NCBI GenBank assembly: GCA_012026655.1
Contig: JAAILG010000053.1
Location: 62,001 to 126,000 of the forward strand
DNA from: Hydrolagus affinis
Lineage: Eukaryota
Reading direction: 5' to 3'
DNA: 64,000 bases
The notes under the pieces: generated by a model
Databases searched by the model: none
Told to the model about the DNA's origin: nothing
The model's input: only the letters and a program-made list of their open reading frames with translations
Program-made: the position numbers and the translations under genes
Shown: piece after piece, positions 7,344 to 64,000 of the stretch
Layout: each line of letters begins with the position of its first letter
How positions within the stretch are numbered: the first letter of the stretch is position 1

Positions 7344-7425
7344 AGCTGGAGCTTAATTTGGCCGAGGAAAAGGGTTATTGTCAAACTGACATTACTTCAG
7401 CACTCATCAAAAGGCACTCGCGGAC

Positions 7426-34322: not shown

Positions 34323-34362
34323 ATTTAATGGCATACTTAATATAATAAGTATGCCATTAAAT
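34323..34362. repeat. Perfect 17-bp inverted repeat, 6-nt loop
   Basis: ATTTAATGGCATACTTA-ATATAA-TAAGTATGCCATTAAAT. Confidence 0.9.
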
Positions 34363-35094: not shown

Positions 35095-35163
35095 ACTATT
35101 TTGCAGATAAGCACATTGAAATATAACAGTACACAAATGTGTGTAAAATACATATCATGTTTA

Positions 35164-35454
35164 GGAGTCCTGTAGCTCAGTGGTTAGAACACTTGCCTTA
35201 TAAGTGAGAGACCAGGGCTCATTTCCAGGCAGGGTGAAATCTTGGGCAATTTTCCTTACTCCACACTCCTAATAGAAATCCCTCAAAAAACAAAAAATTT
35301 ATCATTCCAATCCACAACTGTTTGCGAGGCACTGCTGTGTGCAATTGGCCCACATATATACAGTCAATTCACTTTACAGTATATATTCTGTGAAGCGCTT
35401 TGAGACGACTAGAAGACATGAAAAGTGCTATATCAAATGCAAGGATTATTATTA
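35164..35454 (+). mobile_element. tRNA-derived SINE, full length, L2-like tail
   Basis: GGAGTCCTGTAGCTCAGTGGTTAG (A box) through GTGAAGCGCTTTGAGACG...GCTATATCAAATGCAAGG(ATT)n. Confidence 0.9.
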
Positions 35455-35557
35455 TAAATAAATGGCAGACATAAACGAATAATTAGAATACTATAATTTA
35501 TACTTTTGTTTGTTCGCTACCCACTACAATAAAAGGGTCAAACGGAAGACTATTATG

Positions 35558-35865
35558 ATAATAATAATCATAATAATAATCCTTGCATTTGATATAGCAC
35601 TTTTCATGTCTGCTAGATGTCTCAAAGCGCTTCACAGAAATGTGCTGTGTAGAGAATTGAATTGTGGGTGAAATGTGGCAGCCGATTGCGGCAGCCAGTG
35701 TCCCACAGACAGCCGTGGATTGAAATGACCAACTTTTTTTTTGAGGAATTATTATTATGTGTGTGGAGTAAAACATTGCCCAATGTTTCACCTGATCTGC
35801 CTGGATTCGAACACAGGTCTCGCGCTTGTAAGGCGCGTTCGCTAACCACTGAGTTACAGGACTCC
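35558..35865 (-). mobile_element. tRNA-derived SINE, full length
   Basis: Same family; B box GTTCGAATCC is intact on the minus strand. Confidence 0.9.
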
Positions 35866-39966: not shown

Positions 39967-40284
39967 AAAATGCTTCTGTATATTTTGATAACTTCCGTTT
40001 CAATAAACTTCCATTTGGATTGCAGCATTGCTTGAAATATTATGAAAACAGATGTCTGTCTACGGGAATTGTACAGTATAAAAAGTTTCCCTCTCTTTCT
40101 CTCGCTGGGTGTACACTAATGAATGACAACAACAAATGGCATTTATATTGTGCCTACACAGGATAGTGTCCCAGAAAGCTTGATTCATAATCAATCATTA
40201 AATGCCCCTCAAAATCATAACCACTCCAAAGAAGTACAAGATTTCTGTCCCCACCATACATGGTGTGCTTATGTGTTTATAAAA

Positions 40285-40495
40285 AAAAATAATAACTTAG
40301 TCATCAACAACTGTAGTGGGACACAGCTGTACTCAATTAGCTGCCATATACAGTCAATTCACTTTACAGTAAATTCTGTGAAGCACTTTGAGACATCTAG
40401 AAGACGTGAAAAGCGCAACATCAAATGCACCATATTATATTGTGAAGCACTTTGAGATGTCTCAACAATGTAATAAGGCACTATATCAAATGCAA
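40285..40495 (+). mobile_element. SINE 3-prime fragment with doubled tail
   Basis: TGTGAAGCACTTTGAGA...ATCAAATGCA occurs twice in tandem. Confidence 0.75.
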
Positions 40496-43400
40496 TTTTT
40501 TTTTAACATGGCTTTATCTTATCAATCAAAACTTACATTTATATACCGCCTTTCAAGTCGAGAGGACGTCTCAAGACGTTGTACAGTCAGGTAGGGACAA
40601 GAGCAGGGGGTGGGGGGTGGGGGGTGGGGGGTCGGAGCAGGACGAAGGATGGTAGGAGAATCGACTGTATATTTATCCATTTGGATTGAAGTAAATTTCA
40701 TCAATCATTACCCTTTTTTCTTTTCTCTGTCAGTTTCATCTTTGTTATGATTGTGTCACATTTCTGTTAACAACATTAACAATATTAATTTTTTAATTAT
40801 TTTCCCCCCACACTCCTCTGATCCCGCCCCCCACCCCCTCCCCCCCCCCCCCAACCCCACCACCATCACCTCACTCCAATGGAAAAAACAATGAGAGGCA
40901 AATTTTATGATGAATGGCACTGTTTGCTTTCACAAACACATTTGTAGTTGGAATTGTGATGTTGGAATTGTTTGCTGTCTGGCACCATTAACTGATAAAA
41001 CAATGCTGCCTTGCATGTTACAAACTATTGCTGTGAACTATCCTATCTATCCATCATTTCCATATCAGCTTCTTATCCTCAATCCAAAGACATTGAGCAC
41101 ATAGGTTGAATAAGATGAGAGAGCCATCCCCCCCACCTCACCCCCCGCCACCCCCCACCCCCACAGGGAAATTAACCGACCTTATAATATTGTTTTAATA
41201 ATATACAGTTAAAAAAGAAAGATTGGGATCAGATGATTACAATAGTCAGATAATGACAGGAATACTTTATTCTGCTTTAGATGTTAATATAAATCTATTT
41301 GGGCAAGCAGCAAAGGAGCATTCATCTGTAACAAGGTTCATTACCTAGCAAATGTCACCTATTCAGAGAAGGCTGTTTATCTCCCAAAGGAACTTTCATC
41401 TTTACTTCCATTGGCCATTTTCCATTTTCTGACCATTTAGATCAGAGCCTTTTAGCGGATTATTTGTTGGATAATTTTGGTACAGTGGGACAGTAACATC
41501 TGTGGGAGTAGTGTCTTCAGAACATAAATTTTATTGCCAACTACCAAAAAGTGTTGCGTGTCCAATCTTCACACATACATTCTATCAACATGCTAAAGCC
41601 AACTGCTGATAACAACATTGAGGCACAATATTCCACGAGTACCAACCACAGTACCATTGCTTTCATAAGTAATAAGCCAAAAGACAAAATATTCAAAGCA
41701 GCAACACCTCTTCACCGATGGTGAAGAGATTTATATGTAAATCAGCTATTTCAAATCCTCTTTCACTTGGACTGATTGACTTCATTACAAAGCCAATAAT
41801 TGATCCATCAACCCAATGCTGTTATTTTAAAATCAGTTAAAATATATACAGACTTCAATAACCTGTCCATTCGTTTTTACTTAAAAGTGTATAAATGCCT
41901 GAATTGTATTGTTTAATAAAGTTTTGTTATGTAATTAAATGTATCTTCATTCCTATCTATCTTGCTTTCTTATTTTCTCTCCTCGTCTCTTTCCATTCTT
42001 TAATTTTTCCTCTTTTCTTTATCCTTTCTTCCCTTGCTTGCAACTTTGGTTTGTTTCTGACTTTTCTTGTTCTCCTTTCCCCTATCTTCCCATTGCTCCC
42101 TCTTATTTTCTCACACTTGCCAGTGATTACAGATGACTACAATTGCTTTTATTCACCAATTTTTTGTCACCCTCTGACATGCTGTTTAAGCAGAAACATC
42201 AATTGGTCAATGTATGGAAGCATTATCAGAATGATGTAACTTCTTTGAAATAAAATGATTAAATGAACTTTGCATTTGGTATAACATCTATAAAGTCAAA
42301 ACATCTCTTCACTGATCCCAAGTGTAGTGACTGTGTATTTGTATTGGTATGCAAGCTTTACATTAAGATTATTGCAATTTATTGGAGTTAGTACACATTT
42401 GGGCATAGCCATATCATTCCTAACTAGATTCCCCAGACTGTTTAATTTTAACATTGATTTTACAGTCTCTCCTGCTTTTTCCTGTCTGTTTTTGCGCACT
42501 AAAATTTATTTTCTTTTATGAAGGCGTGCAATACATTTTTGTCTTCTTACCAATTCATATTCTTTCTATCTCTTTCACTCTGTCCAATTATCTCTCCTCC
42601 TTGCTATCCAACATTTTCAGTGTTACTTATTTCAATTCATTTCCCTTTGAAACACTTAGCGGGCATTTATCCAAACATCAAAATAAGAAAATGTTTGAGG
42701 CGAAATAAAATGCCATGTTATGCACATGGGTGGTTTTTATTGAACTTATTTCCAGTGGTGTGAAAAATGAATATTTCATCTTCTATTTAGTTAATGAGTA
42801 AGCAGTAAAGTCTTTATCATTGTGCTGTGGAACATTGGCTGAACTCAATACCATACAGACTTTACTTATTGCATTCATTTAACTTGCTGAATACAACCTC
42901 GCTTTGTATTTGGCTACTCACCCTAACACTGTTTACTATGATCTGTATCTCTACTTCAAATGTTCCATGGAACAATTGGCCCCAATTACATCGGACATGG
43001 GAATTTCATCTGCGGAATGCAGCTAGTCATAGGTGAACATTGCAATATTGTTAAATTGATTATCTCGAGTTTATACTTGAACACTGAAAACACGGAATGA
43101 GACGAGGCCATCCGACACACGTGAAATCTGTCCTTTAGCAGAATAGACGGCCATTTCCCTCGATAGATGAACGTTCAGTACAAATGCTGCCCGCCCCTCC
43201 ATCCCCAAAGGTTAGTAACGAAAAATCTCAACAATATTCCTACATTTTCACATCATTATTCGACTCAGTCATCATTCACCACTCGCCTGCCGTGACGAGC
43301 TACAGTATCTCCTGATAAACTTTGGTGGCTTCAGAGAAATGCTGCACTCCCTCGGGAAGTAAATAGATTGCAAGGACTCAATGACAGTATAAATTATGTA

Positions 43401-44118
43401 TCACCCACTGCAATGAATGGACTGATCGATGGCTTTCCCTCATTCCACAGGTCTGCTTTCAGTCACATTCTTTCCAGCTGGCGTTGATATCTTGCTTGAT
43501 GCTGTAATATGCTTTTCGGGTTGAATTAATATCAATGTTCTTATCTTTTTGTGAAAAAAAAGCTGCTTAAGTGATGTAGAGAAATCAATGTGGTTATATA
43601 TTTTTGATTCAGCTGTAAACTTACATACATATCAGTTTGGGTTGATCTGTATCTCAACACCAAATTGAGTTTGCAGTGGAACCGCCCACTACTCCTTGTT
43701 TATATCGCTAAACATACATTGTATATATGGTTATATACACTTTTATTTAGCTGTACAGGCACTGACGGTCGGGGTGGTGGGGGGGGGGAGGTCCATTATC
43801 TCGGAGGGGCGAGCGAGTGGGGGTGCTTTTCTAAAACTCAGGAATGTATTGGGCATCCCGGGTCTTCGATTTTGAAATCAGTAGTGAAATAAAAGCTGAA
43901 TGACGAATATGAAAAAAAGGAAAAAAAATGGAAAGACTTTCCCTGGTACTGTTGCTGTTGCCATATCATAAAGTCTCACAGCACTTTACACTCAGTTTCT
44001 GTCAGGTGTAGTGACTGTGTTTGTGATAAAGCATGACACCCATGACACCCAAATTAAGCACAAGGCCTATTTATCTGGAGGATTATTGGTGAAGAAACTG
44101 GAAGAAAATATTTTTCAT

Positions 44119-44399
44119 AGTCTTATAGCTCAGTGGTTGGAGCACTCGCCTTACAAGTGAGAAACCTGGGAATGGAAGACCTTGGGCAAGTATATTTAGT
44201 CCACGTGCCTAACAATAATCCCTAAAAAAAATTATATTAAAAAAATTGGTTGATTCTGTTTACGCTGCTGTGAGCAATTGGCTGCTGAGTTTCGACCACA
44301 AATGTACAGTCAATTCACTTTACAGTATATTCTGTGAAGCAGTTCTAGATGTCTAGAAGATATGAAAAGCACTATATCAAATGCAAGAATTATTATTAT
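44119..44399 (+). mobile_element. tRNA-derived SINE, near full length
   Basis: AGCTCAGTGGTTGGAGCACTCGCCTTACAAG head and family tail. An opposite-strand tail fragment follows at about 44520-44575. Confidence 0.85.
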
Positions 44400-45064
44400 G
44401 ATGATGATCATTGTTATTATTGTTATTATAATGTCTTTACATCTATAAAGTCTAACTGATTAGACAGGCTGGATCTTGATTCAGCGTCTCACCCAAAAGA
44501 CACACAATAATCATCACCATCATTATCATCCTTGCATTTGATATAGCACTTTTCACGTCTTCTAGACATCTCAAAATTAATAAACTATTTTAAACAAGAG
44601 AACATATTCTATGAAATTCCAAATTTTAGCAGGATAATGTTAAGACTCTGAAAAATCAAAACAAATAAAATAAATTACATGTAATTCGACAGAAGACTGT
44701 GTCTAGATAAATTTTCTAGAAGAAACTAATAGAATCATCGAACAGAACTAGATCATTCAGCCCATCATGGCTGTACTCTCTGAAGACCAAACTGTCTCAT
44801 ACCTATTTATATATTTTCAGATGTTTCTCCAATTTTCATTTAAACTGGAATTGTTGGAGTCGTGCCCTATGACTATGTTAGGAAATCAATGCGAATATTT
44901 GTAAAGTGTTGATAAGAACAACAAGAAAAAAAATACATTTAGAACGCGTTTCAGTCGGGAGGACGTCCCAATGCGCTGGCTATCAATATAAGAACATTTG
45001 ATATATTGTGTCACTTTCCTCCTAATTTTTTGCAAATATCCTTTTTAAAAAATAAATGCTACTT

Positions 45065-46764: not shown

Positions 46765-46902
46765 GTCGCTGCTTCGTGTCACCCACGAATATACAATCAA
46801 TTCACTTTAAAGGATATTCTGGGAAGTGTTTTGATATGTCTAGAAGACGTGAAAAGCGCTAACTGTATATTAATTGCAAGGATTATTATTATAATTATTA
46901 TT
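46765..46902 (+). mobile_element. SINE 3-prime fragment
   Basis: Family tail TCTAGAAGACGTGAAAAGCGCTA...TGCAAGGATTATT. Confidence 0.75.
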
Positions 46903-47019
46903 TTCACTGATACTGAATGAAAAAGCTCAAACCTGCAAGACCTAAATGCGACCCACTCAATTTCTGTCAGTTTCTATTAGCTCGGTGTTTTGTCAATTTG
47001 GTTGTAATAATCTGTAATA

Positions 47020-47332
47020 AATATTAATCCCTGCATTTGACATAGCGCTTTCCGCGTCTTCCAGACGTCTCAAAGCGCTTCACAGAATATACTGTAGAGT
47101 GAATTGGCTGTGTATTTGTGGGCGAAAACGCGGTAGCCAATTGCGCACAGCAGTGTTCCACAAACAGTCGTGGATTGAAATGACCAATTTATTATAGTTT
47201 TGGGGGGAGGGATTAGTAATCGGCGTGTGGAGTAAGAAAACTTGCCCAAGGTTTCGCCCTGACCTGCCTGGATTCGGACACAGATCTCACGCTTCTAAAC
47301 CGAATGCTCTAACCATTGAGCTACAGGACTCC
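47020..47332 (-). mobile_element. tRNA-derived SINE, full length, possible 10-bp TSD
   Basis: CpG-rich copy that looks young. GTAATAATCT flanks it at 47004-47013 and 47334-47343. Confidence 0.9.
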
Positions 47333-49254
47333 AGTAATAATCTTAACTTTTGAGATATTCTGTAATGTAATAATAAGGAAAAATAAGGAATAAATCCCGT
47401 GGGAAACTCGCTTTAATTGAATGTGATGTAATCCGTGTCTAGATCACTTTTTTTTAGGAAGTTTTAATTTATTTTCACAAGACTGAGTTGCACCCGGATA
47501 AGGTCACGTGTATAACATATTATACGGAAGCATCCATTTTCCACTTGCCACTTGCTGCAAAGTCGCCGCACAAAAAACAACCTTCAGAATCACAAAACAC
47601 ACATCTAAAATGTCCAAGAGGGTTATCTGTTTCACTAACCAGAAAATTACAAATATTTTAAAAAGTTAGAGCAGAATAGATAATTGAAAATAATATTTGA
47701 CTGTTGATGGTATAAAGGATTATTAAATTGAACTGCGTCTGATTGGTTTTCTGCCATTTTATAGGAATTGAACATATCGCTATGTTGCTGCCGTTTTCAA
47801 ATTTGCGACGATTCACTTCATTTATTAAACCTACAGTTTTACTTTACTTATTAAGAGTAAAGTTTTCCCAAAGTTCCAACACCATGCAGATATTTACCAA
47901 CGGATGCGGTTTTTATTTTCCCCAGAGAGGGAGAGGGAGAAAGAGTGGGGGGGGTGTGGTGGGTGGGGGGTGGTCAATTCTGCTTTCAGTTATGGTGGAA
48001 CAGATGGTTTCAAGAGAAAGTTATTCATTCTTTTGACATGCTCACCATGCAATGTCTGTGTGAACTGTCTGTTTCATCATCGGTTAGCGTCTATAAGCAT
48101 ACTTTGATAGTGACTCACTGATTTGACACCGAAATTGAGGTTATTTAATATCCAGCGATGTATTGACTGTACAAACTGCGCGGATCATAAGCGTGACTGT
48201 ATGGCGGCCTTAGTAAACACATGATGTTACGTGTCAAATTGTGCAATCGACTGTTTTATACAAGCTTTCTGTGGGTCAGGCGTGAAGGGCGCTAAATAAA
48301 TGCAAGATGCTGTTGTTGTCAGCAAGTCTGTCTGTCTTTGTGTCTGCCTATTTATCTGTCTGTCTCTGGCTGTTAAAAAGAAAAGGTGAAATGTTAAAAG
48401 CTGAATATCTGAAATATTGAGAATACACGATATATCAAGCAATAAACAGTCATCAGAATTAACGTTGCCCTATCTGCTTGACGAGCAAATCTATTTATAA
48501 TTTGTTTTAGAAGTGGGTTAAAACCGTGGGATCAGAATTCACCAACTTTAGGGAAAACACGGAGAACAGTCCCCGAGTTGAGACCATTCGGTCATCCTAA
48601 CAGCTGGTCATTTATCTATGTACTAACAAGAAATTCAATTTAAAATAACTAGATGTTAATCTTTCACTGCTCGATCCATCGTCTCCATATTATGCATCTC
48701 GATGTAATCATTCATAGATGATATTCACCGTTAGTTTGTTGTACGCAATTTTGCGGCTCAAATTATTTCCTAAGTGTTGTATCCCTCCTCAATATTACTA
48801 ACACCAAATGTTTGTGAGAAAAGTCACCGATATTTTCTGCGAGTTTTGAACCTGATTAAAGTATTGAATATATTTTTAACGGAACAAATTATGTTGCTGA
48901 TTCGTGACCTCGTGGATTTGAATAATTTTTTGAATTGTTTGTTTTCCACATTTCAGTGATAGGTGAAGTGTAGGGTGTGTAGGTAACGTTTGGATTAATA
49001 GAAACAGTCTGAAGGTTTGTTTAATAAAGAGTATGAAGGCATGATTACCCTTTGCCCTGAAATTGCCTTGATCCTCAACAAGTTTGTTCTGATTTTCAGA
49101 AGCTCTACTGCTCTATATTTAGCGAGTTAGATCGAATAACTGGAAATACTTGGCTTTTTATAAATTCTCACTTCGCCGAATCTAACAGGCAGTAACAGGT
49201 CATCGTTAACTTGATTATAGCGATTTATAATTTGGAAATCAGATTAGAATGACA

Positions 49255-49583
49255 ATAATAGTAATAATAATCCTTGCATTTCATATAACGCTTTTCACAT
49301 TTTATCCACGTCCTAAAGAGCTTCACAGAATGTAGTGTGAAGTGAATTGACTGTATATTTGTGGGCGAATCGCAGCAGCCAATTGCTCACAGCAGTGTCC
49401 CACAAACAGTCGTGGATTGAAATGACCAATTTTATTATTGTGTTTTTTTTTAGAGAGATTATTATTAGGCGTGTGGAGTAAGGAAACTTGTCCAAGGTTT
49501 CGCCCTGACCTGCCTGGATTTGAACACAGGTCTCCCCAGCTTGGTCTCCCCAGCTTAGCTAACCACTAAGCCACAGGAGCTCC
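49255..49583 (-). mobile_element. tRNA-derived SINE, full length
   Basis: Same family; the head carries a tandem duplication GGTCTCCCCAGCTT x2. Confidence 0.9.
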
Positions 49584-50889
49584 ACAATCTTTCCGGGTGT
49601 AATCATTTTAGTTATAACTGCAGAGAATCTTGACTGTTTATTTTGGAACATACCGCATGAGGATATATCCGCAATAAAAGGACGTTCGTTCGCCTGAGGA
49701 CGTCGACAATTACGTTACATTCATCGTCGAGAAATATGCAATAATAATAATACGCAGTAAGATATAATCTAATTAGTATTAGAAGAGTTCAATATGAGTT
49801 CAATATCAATCATCTTCACTGTACACATTTAAAAAAAAATCCAAGCACAGTTATCCCAAAGTGAGAGAGACAGACATCGAGGACACTTGCATCAAATGTT
49901 GCAGTATATTATTAAATTCAAATGGATAGTGGTGGCGATTCGTCTACTGGGACTATGTAACTACAATAAAATCATTTGCTTATTATTTTTTCAATCACTC
50001 TACATGTTCCAATCAATCAACCGCTCAGCAGAGATCTTCAATTAGAATGCTTGGAGGCACGCAGCAAAGCTTATCCAGTAAAATGTGCTTTCACAATCGA
50101 TCATTCTTATTTATTTTCAGGGTATATCATTTTTTTACATAAATTTCAAGGGAATTGTGATTTTTCGAAGGTAGAATTCCAAATATTCGAATGAATCTCT
50201 AGGACATATAAAATAAGGCGCCACCAGACACAGTTGTTTTGTTACATATAAAAAGGGAAGTTATATTACAGAAAACGTACCGTGGAAAGATTTTGTGGAT
50301 TTTTTTACATAGAATAAAAAGGCTAAAAGAATTGAAAATACATCAAATCAATTTTTCAAAATTACGATTTCCTTGAATTAAATTTGCAACTACCGGAGTA
50401 TATCTGAATGAGTTAATGAAACCCTTTCAAAAGCAGAAACTGATCACCTCGTTCCCCACCCACTTTGCGTCCAAATTTTTTTATTGACGCTTTATAGATT
50501 TCGTAACATTTATCCCAATTAAAATACAAGAAGAAAAGTCACGCAACCCGTTTGCTTGTACTTCCTGTTGAGACTATACCGGTCATTTAATTGCAAAACG
50601 CTGTAAATGAATCGTATACTGACCTTTTTTCTCCAAAGAAAGAACAAAGTCCTTCAAATCTGGCCTGTTCTTTATTCATTCAAATATCTCAAGTTATGAC
50701 CTTAATTGTCTGGGGTTAGTTTGTTCCCCCTTCATTAACTCCAGAATTTATCTTGAATCGGGCATCTTATCACCCCATCGCTGAGGCGGTGACCACTTAC
50801 TGGATTAGACATGGGACTTTATGTTCTCTTAAAGGCTAGACTGTTGTCGAGGGCCGCGGCTCTCCGTCTGATTGTTGACATTGTGCGTT

Positions 50890-50910
50890 TCAAGTTCAAC
50901 GTCAAGGTCA
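50890..50910 (+). promoter_or_regulatory. Triple DR0 nuclear-receptor element
   Basis: TCA-AGTTCA-ACGTCA-AGGTCA. Confidence 0.45.
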
Positions 50911-53325
50911 GGCCAGACACAAAGGAAGGAATGAGTAGCCGGATCAGCAATCGGATAAACGTTTGCCTTCGGTGAAAATCGATTTGAGATTAATTTCAAG
51001 ACTTGCAATAACCAAAATGAAAGGAAATTCGGGTCTTTCGTTGTTTATCGTTTTTTGTCTCGGTTCATTCACCAACAGTTGGTTTGCGCGTAGAAATAAC
51101 AAAAACACTCACACATACATACAGACACGAAATCAACGCTGACCTTTGGCGCAATGGAATTCGATTGAACAGTCTCACAAAAGAAAAACTAATTTGTGTC
51201 CAGGATTAAAATTAATCCCGTTAAATATGTGTTAATCGCCTAAAATGAGTATTAGTTTCCTTAATGTTTTAATAGAATACAGACACGTTAAATGGGCAAA
51301 TGTACAGGGCTATTCGGTTGGTTATTAGCTACCATGTGATGGCTCGAAAGCTTTGAAGTTCGTGGTATAATTTTGACTTCTGCCTCTTCACACATCGGTT
51401 AAAGGCAAATTAAAACATGAAACATTTAATTACATCCGCTGAAATCGAAGCTGGGCACTAACACGAAAAATACGTGTTAAACATGCGACGCTTTACCACA
51501 CGCCTGTATTTTAAGTACTGCTAAATAATAATTACGCTTTCAAACGCCGAATGACGTATGTATTTTTAAAGATTCTGACTCTTGATAGTGAAATTTAAAC
51601 ATTTAAAAAATATACTGTGTATAGAAGATTCGGAAAAATATCAATCATATTGAATATTAAAGGTTAACCAGATAGGTTCAAATTCTGATGCCTCGATTGA
51701 TTATTATCGTATCCTACGTACACACACACACACAAAGTTTTCTTCAGGCTTTCTGAAAGATAGCTTACTGAATTCCTTATGCGAGTGTAACGAATCTCAC
51801 AGACTGTCCTCTTTTACTAACAGAACCGAGGAACAAAACAGTGAAGAAAATAGTGGATAAAAAGAAATTGTATCTCAATTGTGTATTAATCTGAAGTTAA
51901 ATTTCCAATCTGATCGCAGCCCGGTGCTCATGTGTCCTCGTCAAACAGAGACTTGGTGTCTTTCTGCATCTAAGATGGTTTGGCCAGTTATTTCTTCCGT
52001 CTCGAGTGTTTTCATGTGTATAGGGTACTGTATAGCAAAATGCACGCATGTTTAAATATTCATTAGGCTTGGATGGAGCTACAGGCAACAAAAAATAAAA
52101 CACATTTTGAAACCAAGGTGGGGAATTGTAAGTATTTATGAGATTCCAATATATTCAGTTATATACCTTACTTGAGAAACGTGGGACGTATGCATATTCT
52201 TACAGTACTAAGATTATTGTTGTGCTACTTATGAAATTTGTGCAATTAGTACACGGCAATACTACACAACCATTAACGCAATGAAAATTCGTGATACGTA
52301 TTCACATCAAACAAAATGGTTTTGAAACCGTCCTTACGAGAAATAGCCATTTCAAAGGTTTCCAAGCATTTTCTACTGCAAGAATGGCTTAATATTAAGG
52401 TTAAATGTTCATCGAGCTGGAAATATTGGTATTAGATAGCAATCGATTTCTATCATTCTATTAACAATCTTTTTTTGTAGGTTTACTGACAACTGAAACA
52501 AGCAAAATAATGGCATACAAATAATGGGATACAAATTGAGAAACATGCAGATTGATTTCAGCTCCTGGGCTGTGTTCTGCACACATGCAATAATCTGACC
52601 ATTATTCTTGCCAGTCAGTGATGGGTCTATATTTTGCACTATATTTATATACAACATATTTTGTCCCTTCCGACCAAATACTTAGTACAGATTTAATCAA
52701 TTCAGAACTAAGATTCACTTTAAGTAACGTTGAAAGCGTATGATTGTGAATGTGTTTAACAATTCTTGATATTTCTTACCACAGTCCTGAAATCAATTTT
52801 GACATCAGTAACATCTACGGAAAGATTTAATGATCTAATTATCTCTATTTTTCCTCCTGAAATCATTGATGAATTTCAAATGTTTGTATTATATATATAT
52901 GTATATATATACACGATAGTTTATGATTCTATTATATTGGTAAGGTTATCACTTATTTCCTCAGTTTAAGCATTGTAAATAATCAAGCTCTATTGAAACT
53001 CCACCCCAAATTTATTTTAAAAGTGAGGGACTTTTACTAAATTTGTCACGTACAGTGGTTCCTAAGGCAATGGTAACCAAGTGACCAGTAAAGGCAAACA
53101 ATTCAATGGTTACCTAATGGTCATTTTGCTTCCATCTTGATCGTCACTCTTTACAGAAATTCTCGCTGTTTCTTTACACAAAGACTGGTCCTGGAAAAAC
53201 CAACAATGTGGTACCGAGCGACACAACAGAAGATGGCGCACTTGGCCTGTACATGGCAAGAAAGACCCTGTGATTATTCATAAACTGCGAGAAGTCAAGG
53301 TCGCTGGCGAGCCCACACGTGACCG

Positions 53326-53340
53326 CCAAGGTCAAGGTCA
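53326..53340 (+). promoter_or_regulatory. Perfect DR0 element
   Basis: CCA-AGGTCA-AGGTCA, with a second imperfect copy AAGTCAAGGTCG at 53292-53303. Confidence 0.55.
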
Positions 53341-54096
53341 AAGGCTTATCAGCGCCCTTAGATTCTCGGCATTTTAAACTCTAACCCCTCACGCCACCAC
53401 CCCTTGACCCATATACAAGGCCGAAGCAAGCCTACACCAATACAAACGATACACAAGTACATTCATATTCATTCCTTCACTGTCCTCCACCCTCCACACA
53501 CACTCACACGGTTGCATCAGTGTGCACGTAAACACCAGCACACATTTTACAGTGTGCCTTCTAAGTCCTAGTTTGCTCATGTGCCGTGATAACGGCACAG
53601 ACTCCAAGCTACAGTGAAGCGGCCTCCACGTAGGCGAAGGGAAATCACTCCTCCTTTTATTTTCGCTTCCAATTTCATTGATTCCTATCCAATTTCATTG
53701 ATTCCTATCCATCGATTGTTAGCATCAATAAGCTGCCATATCCCTCCCTCACTTGCCTGGCGACTTGTGTTAAAAAAATGCCCCGGGGGTGGGAGTGGGG
53801 AGTGGGGAGAGGGGAGTGGGGTGGGTTGAGGGGTTGTTTGCAGTCGACTATTTATTGGTCTTCAATTGTATAAACCAGACGCTATTAGAGGTGTGAAGTC
53901 CAGGCGGATTTAGCTCATGTTATGCCTGTGTTTAGCTCTGTAATGATTGTTCCCAAGCTTATATTAAATCACTTCCCTTTTTTTGTCATCTACAAGAAAG
54001 AAAAACGCGACTTGTTCAGTGCCGGCGCAACACGTTATTTTTCGCATACTTTTGTTTTACTCAGGGCGGAATCTTTCTGTTGTTGAAAGCACATAG

Positions 54097-54111
54097 TTTA
54101 TTAAATTTATT
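54097..54111 (-). terminator. Candidate hoxb13 polyadenylation signals (two AATAAA)
   Basis: TTTATT on the plus strand at 54097-54102 and 54106-54111, about 1 kb after the stop codon. Confidence 0.4.
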
Positions 54112-55077
54112 GTAATAGTTTGAAGCGAGATTTGTGAGTGCCGTTGAATTTCTCACAAATTCTCTCTGTCCACAGTTTAAAACTCCCTTTATGATGTAGA
54201 TATATATATATATACTGTAAATCTGCATTGAACAATTAATTATATGTCAACAAGAGATGCAAGTAGATATTTAACTATTTGAGACAGGTTTGCGGGGTGT
54301 CCAGCAATACATGTATGTATATATATTATATATATATATATATATGCATTGTTACGTATATATAGTGCAATTGTGAACTAAAACAATTCACATAACAACG
54401 TGTCTCGGCGAGATAGGTCGCTTGTCCTTTTCATTAACATGTTTGCTTTTGAGGAAAAAATGGTGATAATTATTTTACGTATCTTTCCTATTCGCAACTT
54501 GCCATGAAAACCCTAATGTGATTTTGGTAAGATCTGAATGCCTGGAATCCAAATGTTCTGCAATTTTTCAATCAAATTAGTAGAGTCACAAACGTGTTCT
54601 TATTTTTGTTTCATTTATTACGTGAGCCCCTAACCTGGTGTAGTAGTTTCAAATAACGTTGATGCGATATATATTGCAGCCTTGCCTTTTATAGTGAACG
54701 GATTTTAATTCATTCCCCAGACACAAAAAAATAAAAAGAGCAACTACACCAATAAAACACACATTGCATAACGTCACTACACACAAACAATTGATAATAA
54801 ACTGCGGTGTTGGTATAGATACAGGTTCGTTATAGTTATATTTACATTTTGTCCATTCACTTAGTCCATTTAATGGTATTCATTCACAAATCTCCTGTTG
54901 CAGTACTAAAAATGAAAATAGAGGACGTATCAGCATTTTGCAGACAAAGACACGGCGAAAGACGCGTTTGCACTGTAAGCTTGCAGTATTTGGTAATTGT
55001 CTCTCTTTATACCTGCGGTAAGCGCCAGCTGAACAGTACAGTACGATTCATTTTCCTTCTCCAGATTTTTCTCCCAC

Positions 55078-55325
55078 TTAAGTCGTGTTGCTCTTTACTT
55101 TGGCCACGATTTTCTTTTCTTTGACCCTCCTGTTCTGAAACCAGATGGTGATCTGTCGTTCGCTGAGATTCGTAGCTGCCGAAATCTTCCTTCTCTTGTC
55201 TTTTGTGATAAATTTGTTGGTTCCGTATTCCCTCTCCAGTTCTTTGAGTTGAACTTTTGTGTAAGGGATTCTTTTCTTCCTTCCACGGCGAAATTGACCA
55301 CCGTCCTGTTGGTGACCCACCACAT
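55078..55325 (-). CDS. hoxb13: Hoxb13 exon 2 (homeodomain)
   Basis: Reads [83 protein letters not shown] and AKVK are HOXB13-type residues. The acceptor is tandem CAGCAG (55331-55326). TAA at 55080-55078. Confidence 0.95.
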
Positions 55326-55659
55326 CTGCTGTGTGTAGGTTAGCCACGCAAAGAAAGACACATTAAAAAAAACTCATAGTAATTAAATTTTTTTTAACAG
55401 TATCTTTACCTTTTATAAACTCCCAGGGTTTAAAATTTAAAACAAAAAACGATTTGTTTCAAAATACAAATTTTCCGTTAGCGCTGCCACACGTATAACT
55501 ACCATACTGCAAGCTGCACTCGGCATATTTTCAGAAATAATTTCTGTTGCTGTTGATACCGATTTATTTTCACAACAAACAGGAGGAAGCGTGCGCCGAT
55601 CAGCGCCCGAGATCACGTTTCTTTACTACGAAATAACACAGAATCCGATTAATTATTAC

Positions 55660-56335
55660 CTGCCAATGGGGACTTCCAGAGGTGAGCCGGCTGTGTTTGT
55701 TCTTTACAGTACATCTGGCTGTTCCATCCATTGAGGGCCCAAGGCTGGTAGCTGTCCATAGGTAACAAAGCCTCGTGCCTCGGCTCTCCTGCCCCACTAA
55801 TGGTCTGCACTACCGAAACGTCCAAATAACTTGGCATGGGCTGGTACGGGCCGGCGTAGCCGTGGTAAAAGGCGAATTCCTTAGCCCGGCCTGGGTAGTC
55901 ATCGGTGGGCACTGGAGTGTCCATATATTTGTCTCCCGGATAATTCGACAAGGCGGCAGGCTGGGTGCAAGACTTAATGGGACCTCGACCCATTCGGCAC
56001 GAGTAGTAACCGCTGCCGAAATAACCGTATGGCAAAGGGGCGGCGGGAGAGCCCTGGGGAAGGGGCGGGCAAGGGGCACATTGCTTACCGGGCTCCCCTA
56101 CCCCAGAACCGGACATATCGATCGTGGAGTAACCGGAGCCATGAACCAAAGGTGCGGGGTGTCCTCCCAGCGCCGAGTGAGCCATCAGATTCCTGCATTG
56201 ATTCGCGGAGAAATTCCCAGTGTTGACGAATCCTTCCATTACCCCGCTATTCTTTTTAATCTCATTCAAGTTATTATCATACACGAACATCACAGAGTCG
56301 ACCCAACGTGGCTTGAGAACCAGTGAAACTGTCAT
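55660..56335 (-). CDS. hoxb13: Hoxb13 exon 1
   Basis: Starts [21 protein letters not shown] (Hox13 N-terminal motif). Contains [36 protein letters not shown] and GWNSQMYC. Donor CAG|GTAATA at 55660/55659 is phase 1. Intron 334 bp, protein 307 aa. Confidence 0.94.
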
Positions 56336-56349
56336 ATCACGTCCAGCAT
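56332..56349 (-). promoter_or_regulatory. 5-codon uORF (MLDVI*) whose stop overlaps the hoxb13 ATG
   Basis: ATG CTG GAC GTG ATA TGA; the ATGA overlap is at 56335-56332. Confidence 0.6.
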
Positions 56350-59300
56350 TGGATCTATGGTTTCTTTTAAGAGACTGTAGACGAGAAAGCGATACAGAAT
56401 TTCTTCCAGTGAACAACACTGACGTACTCACCCAGGTTAAAGCAACACGCTCCCTCACTGGCTCCTGGTTGTTCACGTGATATGCAAAGCACTTAATAAA
56501 CCCCAAATACAGAATTGCGAAAGAGAGAGAGAAAAGTTTCATTGCCAGCGAGAAATCCCTAGGCGGCACGTGTTCATTACAGGGAATTGCATGGAGGAAC
56601 TATATCAAACAACAGGCTACGATATATCAATTAAACACACACATGAAATGAACCTAATTTTCCATGCCAGGAAAATCCGGGCATGAAGTTCATTTAATAT
56701 GTCCATTGCATAATCCATCCTTTATCTGATTAAATTTACAAAGACTTGTTTCCACGGTTGAACGTGAATTGAGTTCCCGCTCGCGTTCTTTTTCGACTAT
56801 TATCTATTATCCCCCATCGCTATTTTAGTTAGTTTGAGCTCCATTTCAGCCTCTTTTCTTCACACAGGTCATTAATGTGAAAAGTAAAACCACAAGCAAA
56901 GCTTTTCGGTGAAAGAACACATGTTAAAAACACCGCACACGCACAAAACAACAACACCAAGAGCAGGCCTGCGGTGATTACGTTATTTTGTCTGTGTTTG
57001 AGATGTCATGTGTTTGTTGGCTATTTCTACCAGTCCTTTTCATTACCTTCGTGAGACTGTTTTAAGTTTTGATGCGGGTCTGAAGACACCGAAAATAATA
57101 CGTTGCTCGATGGGATTTGAAATAAGCATTTTCCACAATGAAAAGTTACAAATGTTGGAATATACCAGTGTATTTCCAAGGAGCGCTGAATGCCAATTAT
57201 ATAATACCATAACCACAACGTATCAACTTAAATGTCCAAACAGTGGCTAAGGTGTATTGCTCTCCATAAAACCTCTTCGATGTTTTAATTTTTCACGTAT
57301 GTTACAATACAGTATACCTAGAAGGAAATCTGTACTATATATAAATTATACATCTCAACACTATTGTGATTTTCCTGTGATATTTATACCTCCGGTTACA
57401 CCAGTGAACTTTCATTATGTTGTCAACAAACCGATTGTACTCAATAAAGTCTTAGTAATTGACAGAGAGATTTATATCAGGTTTTGATGTTCTACTATGA
57501 TTATATTAAAGTCGTGTTAGCTTTTACTCTCGAATATTTAACAGGGTTACCCTAACGGTCCCTTACACACACAAAAAAAAGCAATTTCTTTCTATTTTCC
57601 TATCCGATACTTATTTGCAAATTGGATGCTTTTCTCTCTTTAATTGGATTGAGTCACGTTGGAGTAGTTAGTTCAGAAGCCATTTAGTTTCTCAACTATG
57701 CCAACTGCATGGATATCACTATTCGCCTGATTACTTTCACATACATTTTCATTTAACTATAGTTCAAATATATATGGTTGTGATTATTACAATGTAAAAT
57801 ATATAGATTCAAAATGCACTCCCTTTAAGTCCAATATTTTATCGCTACTCCTTTATCAGAAACTAATGTGATTCTATCCAAATTTCTCAGGATACGTTTA
57901 TAAATGCTGCTATGTGGCTACACTGCCAAGTAGGCTGTGCTTCAATGTTAACTGGTTTAATTTCCAAATTAACTCACATTTAACCATGGAGATTTTGATT
58001 GAATATTGGTCATTAAAAAAAAGAAAATTTAAAAGACATTCGAATCAGCCCTTTCACTTGATTGATGTGGTTGAAGAGTGTAAGACAATAATATTTGTTA
58101 ACTTGTAACCAAGATACACTTATTATTCTTTCAAAATGCTTGGAGATTATCTTGCTTTTAGAATATCGCAGAGTGAATCCATTAGTAAGAAATATACATT
58201 TTGGATAAGCCCTATGTGCTTAGTTGGCATAGTACACCTTGGAAGAATGAACGAGTATTTTATTGATGACGATAGAACAATGTGCGGTACTTATGCAAAC
58301 GTTAGATAACGAGAGCATCAAATAAAGACAAATGTGGTGACGTTTGGAGATAATGCTGCTTCGGGTTGAGCAGGAAAGACAGAAGAGAGTGTAATTGGAC
58401 AATTGTACATTTTACAACTAAATTCGGACAGTCAGTTGGTTCAGTAGCGTTGAGTAAGTTATGATGTTGAGACAATATTTTACATGTATAAATGCATCAA
58501 TTCCACAATCCTGAGAACGAATACACCGATTAATGCCTCCTCTTGAATGGTAAATGAACAGCAATTAAAAATGTCCAGTCCTACTTATTTTTCCAATTGC
58601 TACACAAACCCCGTGCCGCCTAATGGATTTTCCATTAAGACCACCCCAATAAAATGATGCATATGCATTAACATGCCAATAACACTACATGGAAAAGATT
58701 ACGACTAGAAATAAACTATTGAAGTAGGATATTTAAAATATATACATTATATATTTTTAAAACCATGAACAACATATGAAGCGAAATTTCACGAAAGTAC
58801 CCATCATAAGGCTGTGCAAGTATATCTTGAAATAATTATTTTATTAACAGCAAGCTCTAACTCGGTCTCTTTTAACTACTTTAAGAGATTTGGGATGATC
58901 CAATACCTTGAATATCCCCGTATCTTATTGTACTTTTGCTTCTGATGAGGAATGGGGCAAAATACCAAACCAGACTTACTCTGGCCTGGGCTGTGCCACT
59001 AAACTGCTTTGTTTTATTAAAAATAGCCTTATCAAAGAAATCACAAGTAAACTGTTCAGTAGACCTTTACTTCTCTGAGGAATTCCACGTGTCTTTCGGT
59101 ATATAAATGTAATGTGTTTTTGTTGTTGTTAGCCTACTTCTTATCATTACAGTGTGAAAAACTCAGAGGACCTCGGTGTGTCACGTTTTTAGCTGTTATT
59201 GTTCACCCTTTTCCCCACCAAGTTACACATTGAATATCCGAGAATAAAATATGTTGATTTCCACTCCACATTAACGATTAATGTTAATCAATCATTACTG

Positions 59301-59484
59301 TGGACAACGAAAGTTCCAACCTTAAATTGAGGACTGTGATTAGACTGTGGTTAGTAGAAGGTTGAGGGACGGGTTCTGGTGGTGGTGGGAGGGGGATGGC
59401 TTATGCGGGAGAAAGTTACGCCGAACTTGAGACAGAGGCAATTTAACACAGAGTGGCCTTTTTTACATACGGTTCAGACACGGC

Positions 59485-59505
59485 TGAAGGCCAAGGTCAA
59501 GGTTA
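59485..59505 (+). promoter_or_regulatory. Triple DR0 nuclear-receptor element
   Basis: TGA-AGGCCA-AGGTCA-AGGTTA. Confidence 0.45.
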
Positions 59506-59603
59506 CAGCTAAGAGTCTAGTCACTATGAGGCCTGTCATTCAGGTCCTTTTACAGTCCTGTCTGAGCCGCATCAAAACAAAACCCTTTGTCGCTTCAGTG
59601 ATT

Positions 59604-59644
59604 CTTTTCTTAGCTCAGACAACGATTCGGAAGCCAATAATGAC
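59604..59644 (-). pseudogene. Possible Hox14 last-exon (helix 3) relic
   Basis: GTC ATT AT TGG CTT CCG AAT CGT TGT CTG AGC TAA GAA AAG resembles VKIWFQNQRQKEKK, mostly by single-base codon changes. Order and strand are correct relative to 60971-61089. Confidence 0.35.
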
Positions 59645-60043
59645 CATCTTGCAGGAATCGCGGACCAGTGCGAGACACATTGGTAAAACAAGCCCTTTTT
59701 TGAAAAACAAAAACAGTTTACAAATGATTTTATACACTGAGGTTTGACCATGACACTGGGTATCAGCGGATCAGCATTTGCAAACCCCAAAGTATGAAAT
59801 ATCACGAATAAGACTTTTATTCACAACACCGTTTCTGGCTCCAAACTATAAAAATTATTAAAGAAATGTCATTGGTGTTCATGCAGTTTGAGAATTCTAT
59901 CGCATGCACAATATTAAGGGCACGTTATAGCTGCATCTAAATGTGTTTCACACCAATCTGCCGACGAGACATAGCTGAGCCAATGCACCAGCCTGACTGA
60001 AGTCCTGTCTGTTAAAACTTCAAGATATGAAACCTAAGACAGA

Positions 60044-60064
60044 AGAGAGAGAGAGAGAGAGAGA
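60044..60064. repeat. (AG)n microsatellite
   Basis: Seen directly. Confidence 0.9.
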
Positions 60065-60970
60065 AAAACAGCACTGATGTTTTTCAGTCATTCACTCAGG
60101 TACTGCCGACATTTTAATGTATCCTTACTTTTATTTTTGCGTGTGATGTATGTACGGTTCGGGTATAAATGTGTGCACTGTCAATGGCATGAGCCATTTG
60201 CGAATGTCTCAGTGTGTGTAAAGGAGTATATTTCTCTATGCTAGCTCCTTGCTAATTAATTATTGAATCAATTGTTGTACTGTCTTTGGGACACGATTAT
60301 TTGTGTTAGCAACTAACCGATAAGTGTGAGGTGAAATTGCTTAACGTGAAAACTTGATTTTTCCCAACGTTGCTTAGGAAGTTGGATCATGGCAATTTGC
60401 AATTGAAACTCAGAAAGGGTTAACAACGTAGCTGAAAAATGAAAGCACCCTTTTCCCATTGATAAATCACCCTCCATAACGCCGAATCACTGTTATAGTG
60501 CAGTTAATAACGAAATCTGGGAATGATCATCCAGCAAAAAATTGGCCTTTTTTTTCTTTTTTAGAAAAAGGTTTAGTTAGATGCATAATCTTATATATGC
60601 TTCGTGTTATAAATCCCGGTCTAAAGCCAGTTAATAGGCCCAATACTGTACACCAGTTAGATTGGAGTGGGGGCACATTGATATACGTTCTTCATTTTTT
60701 TGTCATGAAATGCGTTTTAATGTCGGCTTTCAAATTTAGAAAACGTGCCCGAACGCTCATCATAAACGACCCAGCTATACAACACAAACTAAATATTTGT
60801 TTCTATAAATAGACATCATGTCTCTTCCCCCAATGTCTGCTGCCGACATTTAACAGTTCTTTAGACTGGGCGGTTAGATTTATATATTGATATATACGAA
60901 ATCGAAAGCATCGGGTATCGAAAGCTGTTTGTGAAAAATATTCCAAGGAAGAAAAGAAAAACAAAATCAC

Positions 60971-61089
60971 CTGGTTTATAACCTATTCGATGCGACGTCG
61001 GGTGTTGACTCTAATGAGAATCTACAGAACCTCGACTGTTTGGTTATATTCTGCTGTCTGGTAGGAGAGCTCTTTGTGCCCAATTGCCC
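60971..61089 (-). pseudogene. Probable Hox14-type homeobox 5-prime exon relic (putative hoxb14 pseudogene)
   Basis: KSSPTRQQNITKQSRFCRFSLESTPDVASN aligns ungapped to remembered Hox14 KRIPYSKQQITELERAFEENRFLTPEIRQN (9/30 identities plus D/E and V/I). It is bounded by an AG acceptor and a CAG|GTGATT donor, as expected for the Hox14 intron after homeodomain Q44. It carries an in-frame TAA. Confidence 0.5.
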
Positions 61090-61815
61090 CTGTAAATGAT
61101 TTAGTTTCCAATAGTAAACATAGAGGCTTTGCCCGACTATTAGACTTGGTGGAAAGTTGCTCATTGAAAAATAAATTGATGCAAAATTAATAAGTAAGTA
61201 TTTGTAGAGATTGAAATCTGCGCCATTATTATCAGTATGCAGTTGAACTGCCTCAATATGTACAAAGAATAAGGCCACGTTTTGCTCCTTAATCTCCTAA
61301 TCTCCATAATATATTTGTTGATATACGTGAATATGCGAGGTTTAAATATGCTCTATATTCTTACAAAAGGGTACAATCACTAGACCAAATTGATAGGTGT
61401 ATTTCTGAATACATATTTAAAAATACATACATTTCAATAATATTTTTCTGAAGCAATTCATTTGTTTAATTCGTGCTTGCTTCGGTTTCAATCCTTTTCA
61501 GATCTATTATAATATGTTGTATATCATTTACTAAAATATCTATTTCAACGCAATAATTCACATTTTGCTCCATTCAAAGTCAAGTGGCTGCAAAGTCAAG
61601 AATATGTAAATAAATGTAATCTTTTTAAAATATAAAAATTAATTTAACGATGAACCCAAATACCTTATTTTTAAAATAAATGTTTCAGTATCATTGAACT
61701 CCAGCCCGAACCACCCCTAGAAGACAAATTAGGTAACTGGCGCATTGGCCAACAATTAGAATACCTTCTAATATTAGATTTTTAAAAACTCGATATATTT
61801 TAATATATTTTATAA

Positions 61816-62113
61816 GGGCGAAACTTTAGGCAAGTTTTCGTATTCCCCACTCCTCAGCTTTCCTAGCAGTGAGTAGGAACCCAGTTGTTAATTAATTGTC
61901 GGATCGCTTTCTTGGGATAATAATCCCTTCAAAAAGAAAATTGGTCGCTCAATCCATGACTGTATGTGAGACACCGCTGTGCCCAATTGGCGGGCGAGTT
62001 TCCCCACAAAATGCACAGTCAATCCACTTTGAAGTATACTCTGTGAAGCGCTTTCAGAAGTAAGTCTCAACGACTTGATGAGATCAAATGCAAGGATGAT
62101 GATTATTATTATT
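61816..62113 (+). mobile_element. tRNA-derived SINE, 5-prime truncated
   Basis: AGGGCGAAACTTTAGGCAAGTTTT...CTGTGAAGCGCTTT...ATCAAATGCAAGGATGATGATTATT. Confidence 0.8.
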
Positions 62114-63109
62114 AATTATGGAACGGAATTGAGTTAACACAATATTCCTGACCAAGTGAAATAGATTTCATGTAAATTGACTTAGAAATGGAAATTCCGT
62201 CGTTAATGGCTGATGCACTCAATCCAGCAAATTGCTGAAATATCGATTACTCAGTATTCTAGCCTGAGTATATCCCGCTTGTTGGCATATCACTGCAAAT
62301 AAAAACAACCAACCGTATATCATGATTTATTTCCTGCCTCTATTTCACTGAAGTTTCTCTGCAAAACACGTTTACATTTTCGTAGCAAATAGGTTTGACT
62401 GACAGGGGAAACAGATTGCTTCAAGTAGAAGAGCAGCAATTGCGATCCAATTTCCAGTTGCATTTCATTTTCCAGTACATTCTCTTCAACTGAATTGATG
62501 CCTTTTAACGAAAAGGTCCAAATGATCGTATGATCTGTAAACTTCGTGTACTTTGTATTTAACTTTAAATGTATTTAACTCCAAGGGCAAAATCAGCAAA
62601 TAGACCCATAAATAGATGCAATAAATGAAATGGCCTTGGCCATTATATAATTTGCTGATTATTCGTGTCGTGCTCACAGGCAGTTCAATAACTGTGTGTA
62701 ACTGCGCTGGCTAACTTATGATAATTACCAAAGATGCCAAGTGTCACATGACATAATGCATATCCCTTTCAGTGATGAATAGAACGATATAAAAAAAACT
62801 TAGTAGACGAGGCAAAGGTTGTACAAATCTGTCCACCTAAATATCATAAATAATACTTCTGGAGCACAAATGGTATTTTCCCACAGTTATTAAAGAATTT
62901 CCGTATTGGTGCATCGCGTGTTTATTCAAAGAAAGGCATATTCTAGGGTTTTACAATTCTATTTTACAATATTCAGAGTAAGGATCATAAGGAATATTCC
63001 TTTCGCGTTTACATAAACCTACCATACAGCCTCGTATTTTCCCAAATATATGTTTGTTCGATTATCGAATGGTTTATTGGAAATAAAAAGGGAAACATGC
63101 ATACAAGGG

Positions 63110-63190
63110 ATAATAATTATAATCATTGCATTTAATGTAACGCTTTTCATGTCTCCTAGATATCTCAAAGCGCTTTACGGAATATACTAG
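63110..63190 (-). mobile_element. SINE tail fragment
   Basis: TTGCATTTAATGTAACGCTTTTCATGTCTCCTAGATATCTCAAAGCGCTT. Confidence 0.7.
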
Positions 63191-63470
63191 ACAAGGAGAA
63201 AGGAAAAGGCGAGTGTGAAAAAAAGGGGAAAAGTGAATTAGGGAGACAGACAATGAAAGAGAGTATAAAAAGAGAAAGTCAGACATACAGAGTGTGACAA
63301 AGAGAGCCAGTGTATGTGTGTGAGAGAGAGAAAAGGCGTGTGAGCTCTACCATACCCAGATTTGCTGGGGCTGTAGGTGGTTTCTGTTTACATTTGAACA
63401 CCCAATCACATCGTTTTGTGTGACTCGCCAATCAAATGGTCAAATAGATTTGGGGGCCAGACAGCGCTTT

Positions 63471-63485
63471 TGACCTTGAACTTGG
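63471..63485 (-). promoter_or_regulatory. Perfect DR0 element
   Basis: Reverse complement is CCA-AGTTCA-AGGTCA. Confidence 0.55.
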
Positions 63486-64000
63486 CTTCTAACAACTCTG
63501 AGCTTCCCAGTACTGATCGCAGATGCAGCATTATATCCATATGTGGAGAAAATATATACGAATATGCATATCTTTCACGTTAATAAAGTAGCGAGAAGGC
63601 CGATTGAAACTATCTGTGAACCCAAGCCTGTATACAGCATATGCTCTTAAACGATGTGCATATTTAACGTACATTATTCAGAGCACAGATGAGATATGTG
63701 GGTGTATGTCATCACGCAATATGGCGCGCAAGTCGATTCCCTTCCCCTTCCTTTTGCTCAGCGACTAACCCAGTCTTTGTCAAGCGCTCCGAGTTATTAT
63801 CCTGCGTTAATGGCGCTATATAAATGCAAGTTGTTGTTGATATTGTTGTTTATTGCACATACATGCATTAACGGTTTATAGAAGGAATGCTTTAAATCTC
63901 TGTCTGTCTGCTGGTATGCTAACTCCCCTCACACAAAGCAGCCAATGTTTGTTAGGTTGAATGAAACCCCACCCTGTTGTCTGGTAAATACGTGCTATGT

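Follow-up and report, generated by a model that had tools for sequence, protein, structure and literature searches.

Zero-spaced hexamer arrays on both sides of hoxb13 in Hydrolagus affinis, candidate sites for repression by NR6A1

Introduction

Does the DNA around hoxb13 contain elements through which the nuclear receptor NR6A1 (GCNF) could repress the gene directly? The question arises from a 64-kb stretch of Hydrolagus affinis DNA (contig JAAILG010000053.1, positions 62,001 to 126,000; hereafter the window), in which a preliminary description, made from the letters alone, had reported four zero-spaced direct repeats (DR0) of the nuclear receptor hexamer AG(G/T)TCA bracketing hoxb13, and had proposed that they form an ancient array through which NR6A1 times the onset of Hox13 expression. 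A 2024 review describes the directness of posterior Hox repression by Nr6a1 as unclear (PMC10909835), and a referee of the mouse study in PMC9755267 asked for the source of the specificity of NR6A1 to these genes. The analysis below names short candidate elements, one of them resembling a published mouse sequence, that bear on the directness of the repression and on the particular sensitivity of Hoxb13.

Four arrays cluster around hoxb13

The four strings were recovered at exactly the coordinates first reported, and the gene that they enclose, which lies on the minus strand, is hoxb13. Exon 2 (55078..55325, minus strand) encodes the homeodomain, for which HOXB13 is the top match in the PDB (E 5e-35), and the stop codon; exon 1 (55660..56335, minus strand) is 97% identical to HoxB13 of Callorhinchus milii and 80-82% identical to that of shark and ray, as would suit a holocephalan source. 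The splice acceptor of exon 2 and the donor of exon 1 were both placed by reading the sequence. Site 1 (50890..50910, plus strand), 4.17 kb 3' of the stop, carries the hexamers AGTTCA ACGTCA AGGTCA without spacing behind a TCA lead-in, and site 2 (53323..53340, plus strand), 1.74 kb 3' of the stop, is a perfect DR0 with a CCA lead-in and a CACGTG E-box before the array. On the other side of the gene, site 3 (59488..59505, plus strand; AGGCCA AGGTCA AGGTTA) lies 3.15 kb upstream of the ATG and antisense to hoxb13, and site 4 (63471..63488, minus strand; AAGCCA AGTTCA AGGTCA, a perfect DR0 plus lead-in) lies 7.14 kb upstream in the same sense as the gene. The bracketing therefore stands, with two sites 3' of the stop and two 5' of the ATG, all less than 7.2 kb away. 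Because the window stops 0.5 kb past site 4, further sites may follow.

We counted motifs within the window and took chance expectations from Markov models of orders 0-5. Perfect copies of AGKTCAAGKTCA number two (53329(+) and 63482(-)); uniform base composition predicts 0.03, as had been stated, and the Markov models predict 0.03-0.08 (P 4e-4 to 3e-3). Allowing one mismatch yields seven matches at five loci (1.1-1.8 expected, P 0.005-0.03), namely the four sites and 8621(-), the last of which is absent from the preliminary description. A zero-spaced AG(G/T)TCA pair is thus perfect at sites 2 and 4 and has one mismatch at sites 1 and 3. All four sites also carry a 5'-extended half-site (CA or TCA before the hexamer): the CA-extended pattern CAAGKTCAAGKTCA, at up to one mismatch, has five matches in the whole 64 kb, confined to the four loci, whereas chance predicts 0.08-0.18 (P 2e-6 to 3e-5), for a pattern that was picked after the sites had been seen. 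The looser RGKTCARGKTCA, at one mismatch, matches six loci window-wide, which is not significant (P 0.05-0.21). A three-hexamer pattern, built from the sites themselves, matches all four and nothing else in the window (0.29 expected; 0 of 100 shuffles). The earlier reading of two sites as triple half-sites is upheld for those two, and its restriction to two is not, since all four fit the three-hexamer pattern.

As a control for looking elsewhere, we counted every complex tandem-hexamer pattern with this shape, 13,392 in all. At least four loci are reached by 55 of them, 44 of which derive from these sites and 11 of which do not; eight of the 11 have a single G/C among five fixed letters, several are rotations of one word, and in just two do four loci fall within 12.6 kb. 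We regard the clustering of the four arrays at hoxb13 as confirmed.

An origin of the sites in repeats was rejected, since none of the four overlaps a repeated segment of the window, in agreement with what had been reported. Site 2 is itself 2.5 copies of a perfect 6-mer (Tandem Repeats Finder). Read depth over sites 1 and 2, the two sites covered, was 56 and 38 in contigs of a relative's sequencing run (X7), similar to that of their neighbours. Classical retinoic acid response elements, with half-sites spaced by one, two or five bases (DR1, DR2, DR5), were also ruled out, as no perfect one overlaps any of the four sites, and there is no perfect DR1 or DR2 anywhere in the window.

Two further elements of this family were seen. 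The fifth one-mismatch locus (8610-8621, minus strand) is a DR0 without the CA extension, located about 1.3 kb upstream of a gene that, from its homeodomain features, we take to be of Hox10 type; this gene (~1900-7350) has no extended array nearby. The sole perfect DR5 of the window (49786-49802, plus strand; AGTTCA, five bases, AGTTCA) is found 1.1 kb further out than site 1; since the same letters form an exact 11-base tandem duplication close to a repeat, it may be a slippage product.

Likeness of site 3 to other Hox13 loci

Three of the 51 candidates in a scan of metagenome contigs proved to be Hox13 loci (L001, L002 and L003), while none of 17 candidate stretches in viral collections and none of 15 in prokaryote collections was a HoxB13 relative. 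L001 codes for an exon 1 of teleost HoxA13 type; its best matches overall are unnamed eel and bonefish proteins, and its best named matches are HoxA13, including HoxA13b. About 850 bases upstream of this gene, and antisense to it, L001 holds the array AGGCCA AGGTCA AGTTGA, so that side and strand agree with those of site 3.

We compared the flanks of each site with those of the L001 array, masking the 15-letter core and using 1500 random anchors in the window as background. The flanks of site 3 score 34, which none of the 1500 anchors equals (background maximum 20); six of these points come from the start of the first hexamer, and the remaining 28 still exceed the maximum. Those of site 4 score 20, equalled by 1 of 1500 anchors, and 27 of 35 letters are identical in an ungapped alignment of site 4 with L001. 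In a version of the test based on 200 shuffles, one shuffle matched the score of site 3 and none that of site 4. Around site 3 we therefore mark a candidate paralogous conserved element (59450..59535, plus strand, limits approximate) on the basis of this likeness. The match between a HoxB and a HoxA locus would place its origin before those clusters split, on the evidence of one contig.

The published mouse sequence gives a second line of comparison. A mouse 'Hoxb13 DR0' serves as a model element for RAR/RXR, with measured binding and a crystal structure of RXR (PDB 6XWH; PMC7515732). On DR0 elements RAR/RXR binds non-cooperatively and more weakly than on DR5, and reporters are unaffected (PMC7515732), which leaves open the regulatory partner of DR0. 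The mouse 30-mer given in the supplement of PMC12489474 runs on into a third hexamer, AGTTGA, followed by AAG, letters identical to those of L001. The 21-letter core of the 30-mer agrees with L001 at 19 of 21 positions (0 of 200 shuffles) and finds its best match in the window at site 3, at 16 of 21, a value that by itself is unremarkable in 64 kb, where there are four 15/21 matches, two of them away from the sites. Moutier 2012 is reportedly a source for the mouse element.

In F9 cells, a strong RAR/RXR chromatin immunoprecipitation (ChIP) peak is recorded at mm9 chr11:96,051,451-96,051,951 (PMC4446430). This interval falls between Ttll6 and Hoxb9. If mouse Hoxb13 starts near 96.056 Mb, as we presume, the peak would lie about 4 kb upstream of it, much as site 3 does. 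The peaks listed from PMC4446430 include none on the immediate 3' side of mouse Hoxb13, none at Hoxc13 and none under the four coordinate prefixes that we took to lie upstream of Hoxa13; among the matches listed for Hoxd13 (26 of 30, under two coordinate prefixes) there was likewise none, and these blanks are no evidence of absence.

From these comparisons we infer that the mouse Hoxb13 DR0 and site 3 are probably orthologous, and the site 3 element looks ancient. The antiquity proposed for the whole set is accordingly supported for one member, site 3, by its look-alike upstream in L001 and by the mouse likeness; conservation has partial support at site 4, and the flanks of sites 1 and 2 resemble L001 at background level.

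A promoter-proximal stretch (56474..56501, minus strand) also matches L001, at 1712-1739 (blastn 24/28, E 0.011), with a CACGTG E-box inside. The string CACGTGACC, found in both L002 and site 2, was discarded as a common E-box in opposite positions.

Neighbouring words and extended half-sites

GTCT and CAGAC, which we take to be Smad-type words, recur beside the arrays. The 8-mer GGCCAGAC, with a CAGAC word, abuts site 1 (50911..50918, plus strand) and has two copies in the 64 kb, each beside an array (sites 1 and 4); in L001 the word is likewise separated from the array by 8 bases, as at site 4. Read from the other end, GTCTGGCC stands 8 bases behind site 4 (63455..63462, minus strand), agreeing with L001 in both word and spacing, a coincidence found at 1 of 1500 anchors. 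At site 3, a GTCT word (59515) follows the array after 9 bases, and CAGAC precedes the array by 13 bases. The GTCT word thus follows the array at 8 (L001), 9 (site 3) and 8 bases (site 4), and at site 1 the word is abutting and reversed. CAGAC lies within 20 bases of three of the four sites, with P about 0.003 for this post hoc observation.

The word YCAAGGYCR, which we assume to be the monomer consensus of NR5A and ERR receptors, occurs seven times in the window, always within 50902-63479 and never in the first 50 kb, and is present in all four arrays. Two of the seven sit outside them; the extra extended half-sites are TCAAGGTCG (53295..53303, plus strand), about 20 bases before site 2, and CCAAGGCCA (62631..62639, minus strand), between sites 3 and 4.

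Close relatives

A search of sequencing runs matched this DNA only in near relatives (shares up to 0.48). Four of 14 such runs were compared, over 2.8 of the 12.6 kb (50750-53550, with sites 1 and 2). Run X7 differs from the window by 27 substitutions in 2475 compared bases (~1.1%), and the depletion of substitutions within 200 bases on either side of the two sites has P 0.08. In run X5, site 1 shows no differences and site 2 is outside the cover; X1 and X12 have no real cover of the interval. Between 52784 and 53550, around site 2, X7 has 2 substitutions in ~770 bases, compared with 24 in the preceding 1.5 kb; this is a possible constrained region, with limits set after looking.

NR6A1 as a candidate repressor

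NR6A1 is a repressor that binds DR0 elements both as a homodimer and in a larger oligomeric form (PMC10909835; PMC2233893), and its element includes an extended half-site (PMC10909835). A 2026 paper argues that it may activate as well (PMC12957460). In the mouse tailbud, loss of Nr6a1 raises Hoxb13 more than 200-fold, and a 25-fold rise without Gdf11 and a 150-fold rise with Gdf11 are also reported (PMC9755267). Of the posterior Hox genes tested, Hoxb13 alone was induced by Nr6a1 loss without added Gdf11, and it was the strongest responder with it (PMC9755267). The interpretation in the preliminary description is thus partly supported: its link to NR6A1 fits the mouse genetics better than that description knew, because Hoxb13 alone responds without added Gdf11. 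Chang 2022 states that the mechanism of Hoxb13 derepression 'remains to be defined' and mentions putative Nr6a1 sites in all four Hox clusters without detail, while the peer-review file describes ChIP as ongoing work (PMC9755267).

We think it somewhat probable, at roughly 55%, that NR6A1 represses hoxb13 directly through the four arrays during trunk elongation. Dimers or oligomers of NR6A1 would occupy the two to three hexamers of each array and would recruit corepressors, and hoxb13 would be kept off until the trunk is finished. The adjoining GTCT and CAGAC words may take the input of Gdf11 through Smads, and the gene would switch on once Gdf11 rises and Nr6a1 is cleared. In other cell types RAR/RXR, ESRRB and NR5A2 may use the same sites, as at the Oct4 promoter. 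That Hoxb13 is the posterior Hox gene most sensitive to Nr6a1 would be accounted for by its having several arrays. Such repression would also give a likely role to the mouse DR0, long studied as an inert RAR site, and would tie the control of trunk length to DNA older than the Hox clusters of jawed vertebrates.

A number of points weigh against direct repression through all four sites. Occupancy by NR6A1 is put forward from the letters and from mouse genetics, motif letters cannot separate this receptor from RAR/RXR, COUP-TF, ESRRB or NR5A2, and the supporting genetics come from mouse and not from Hydrolagus affinis. All four Hox clusters respond to Nr6a1 (Chang et al., PMC9755267), possibly indirectly. 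Sites 1 and 2 are unchanged in X7, and such constancy has a chance probability of 0.67; their flanks are at background against L001 (equalled by 124 to 987 of 1500 anchors), and site 2 has no GTCT or CAGAC word nearby. When the window is aligned to the upstream DNA of L001 without a positional prior, the tile with site 3 ranks third of 86. The paralogue comparison rests on the one contig: no array occurs among the 1370 upstream bases of L002, a teleost hoxb13a contig, and none at up to one mismatch in the intron and downstream part of L003.

A wider proposal can be made only tentatively, and we think it more doubtful than the repression itself: a three-hexamer NR6A1 site with a Smad word at fixed spacing might be an ancestral Hox13 'tail switch' that predates the HoxA/HoxB split, with array copy number per paralogue (four at hoxb13) acting as a cis-acting dial of trunk length. 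NR6A1 would block, and Gdf11-Smad release, the gene on a single 35-base element, and the number of arrays would set the strength of the block on each Hox13 gene.

Alternative explanations

As the preliminary description had recognized, other receptors share the DR0 core; RAR/RXR, COUP-TF, ESRRB and NR5A2 all bind it, and rival readings follow. The best placed of these, which we nevertheless consider unlikely, is that the arrays form a retinoid-linked silencer of hoxb13 occupied mainly by RAR/RXR (RAR-gamma, for example) or COUP-TF, with NR6A1 acting indirectly. The nuclear receptor silencing of Hoxd11 region IX is said to offer a precedent. Published binding and structural data assign the mouse Hoxb13 DR0 to RAR/RXR (PMC7515732), the F9 peak at mm9 chr11:96,051,451-96,051,951 lies between Ttll6 and Hoxb9, and in the zebrafish tail hoxb13a is abolished by an RAR-gamma agonist (review, PMC12898243). 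Retinoic acid induces GCNF, however (PMC2233893), so the agonist result fits NR6A1 as well, and the silencer is opposed also by the non-cooperative, reporter-silent binding of RAR/RXR, weaker than that on DR5, and by the lack of any perfect DR1, DR2 or DR5 overlapping the four sites.

Next in probability, and unlikely too, is that site 3 alone is an old functional element, that sites 1, 2 and 4 are lineage-specific or products of short tandem slippage, and that there is no four-site bracket. The chance-level constancy in X7 and background flanks of sites 1 and 2 agree with this, as do the perfect 2.5-copy 6-mer at site 2, the reliance of the strongest statistics on patterns chosen after looking, and the 55 of 13,392 patterns that reach at least four loci, 11 of them independent of these sites. 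Of those 11, however, eight are low in G/C, several are rotations and just two are as tightly packed (12.6 kb or less). Site 4, moreover, has GTCTGGCC at the spacing of L001 (1 of 1500 anchors), site 1 has three hexamers and the same 8-mer, and only 2 of the 27 X7 substitutions fall in 52784-53550 around site 2, an interval with post hoc limits for which the fixed test of 200 bases either side gives P 0.08.

We judge it rather improbable that NR5A2 or ERR, binding as monomers, instead use the arrays to activate hoxb13 in hindgut or cloacal endoderm, in place of a role in axial timing. Each array does hold YCAAGGYCR, all seven copies of which lie at 50902-63479; the earliest Hoxb13 expression in mouse is in hindgut endoderm (PMC9755267), and LRH-1, a competitor of GCNF at Oct4, is expressed in tissue of endodermal origin (PMC2233893). 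A monomer, though, needs a single extended half-site, whereas each of the four sites preserves the register of two to three hexamers, and NR5A2 or ERR alone would leave the Nr6a1 phenotype unexplained. Use by these receptors is compatible with direct repression by NR6A1, in which case the sites would have two functions.

That the four matches and the L001 and mouse likenesses all arose by chance is very improbable: relaxed patterns are not significant, the site 3 tile is not top-ranked in the unanchored L001 alignment and the 16/21 mouse match alone is unremarkable in 64 kb, but the same motif is found at Hox13 genes of three lineages, reached by independent routes.

The wider window

The Hox10-type gene (1912-2244 and 6606-7352, minus strand) lies ~48 kb from hoxb13 and has an intron of ~4.4 kb; no Hox11 or Hox12 homeodomain was present among open reading frames of at least 100 amino acids between the two genes. 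Interspersed repeat copies occur within this Hox cluster at 44119-44576, 46768-47336, 49243-49585, 61916-62119 and 63110-63188, and repeated sequence makes up 17% of 32-48 kb compared with under 1% of the first 32 kb. An Rfam scan of the window returned one weak tRNA-like match and nothing else; its overlap with a repeat copy suggests that this copy is a short interspersed element. The ratio of observed to expected CpG is 0.33-0.39 at 28000-36000 and 40000-44000, in the middle of the gap between the Hox10-type gene and hoxb13, as against mostly 0.7-0.97 elsewhere.

Comparison with known systems

Among the 28 papers listed in a literature search by motif letters, none had a title on Hox regulation. 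In the open-access literature we found no description of the element shared by site 3 and L001 (subscription papers and supplements were outside the search), nor of the four-site arrangement, the third hexamer, the hoxa13 counterpart, the Smad-type neighbour or the assignment of the arrays to NR6A1 (Moutier 2012 and Gurtan 2013 were outside the search). Gurtan 2013 is reportedly an Nr6a1 ChIP study.

Paralogous conserved non-coding elements of Hox clusters are a known class, and the candidate element at site 3 resembles them in being short, common to HoxA and HoxB paralogues, and on the same side and strand. Nuclear receptor repression and Smad activation reportedly set posterior Hox boundaries elsewhere, through the Hoxd11 region IX silencer and the Gdf11/Smad-responsive enhancers of Hoxd11 and Hoxc11; those elements are said to differ from the present ones in belonging to another paralogue group, in having separate elements for each input, and in having RAR and COUP-TF as the named binders.

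The proximal promoter of Oct4 (Pou5f1) contains a conserved DR0 shared by the activators NR5A2 and ESRRB and the repressors GCNF and COUP-TF (PMC2233893), and its switch between LRH-1 and GCNF is the model for how the hoxb13 arrays would work. Oct4 differs in having a single promoter element that overlaps a DR1, whereas at hoxb13 the arrays number four, are distal and stand on either side of the gene, and Smad-type words adjoin three of them. Another close counterpart is the mouse Hoxb13 DR0, a repeat without spacing that has likewise been assigned to Hoxb13 and whose core agrees with site 3 at 16 of 21 positions and with L001 at 19 of 21. As published, it is a single two-hexamer element and a model for non-activating RAR/RXR binding, and the passages that describe it name no third hexamer, further sites, conservation, Smad word or NR6A1 timing of Hox genes (PMC7515732). 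One mouse site was already known.

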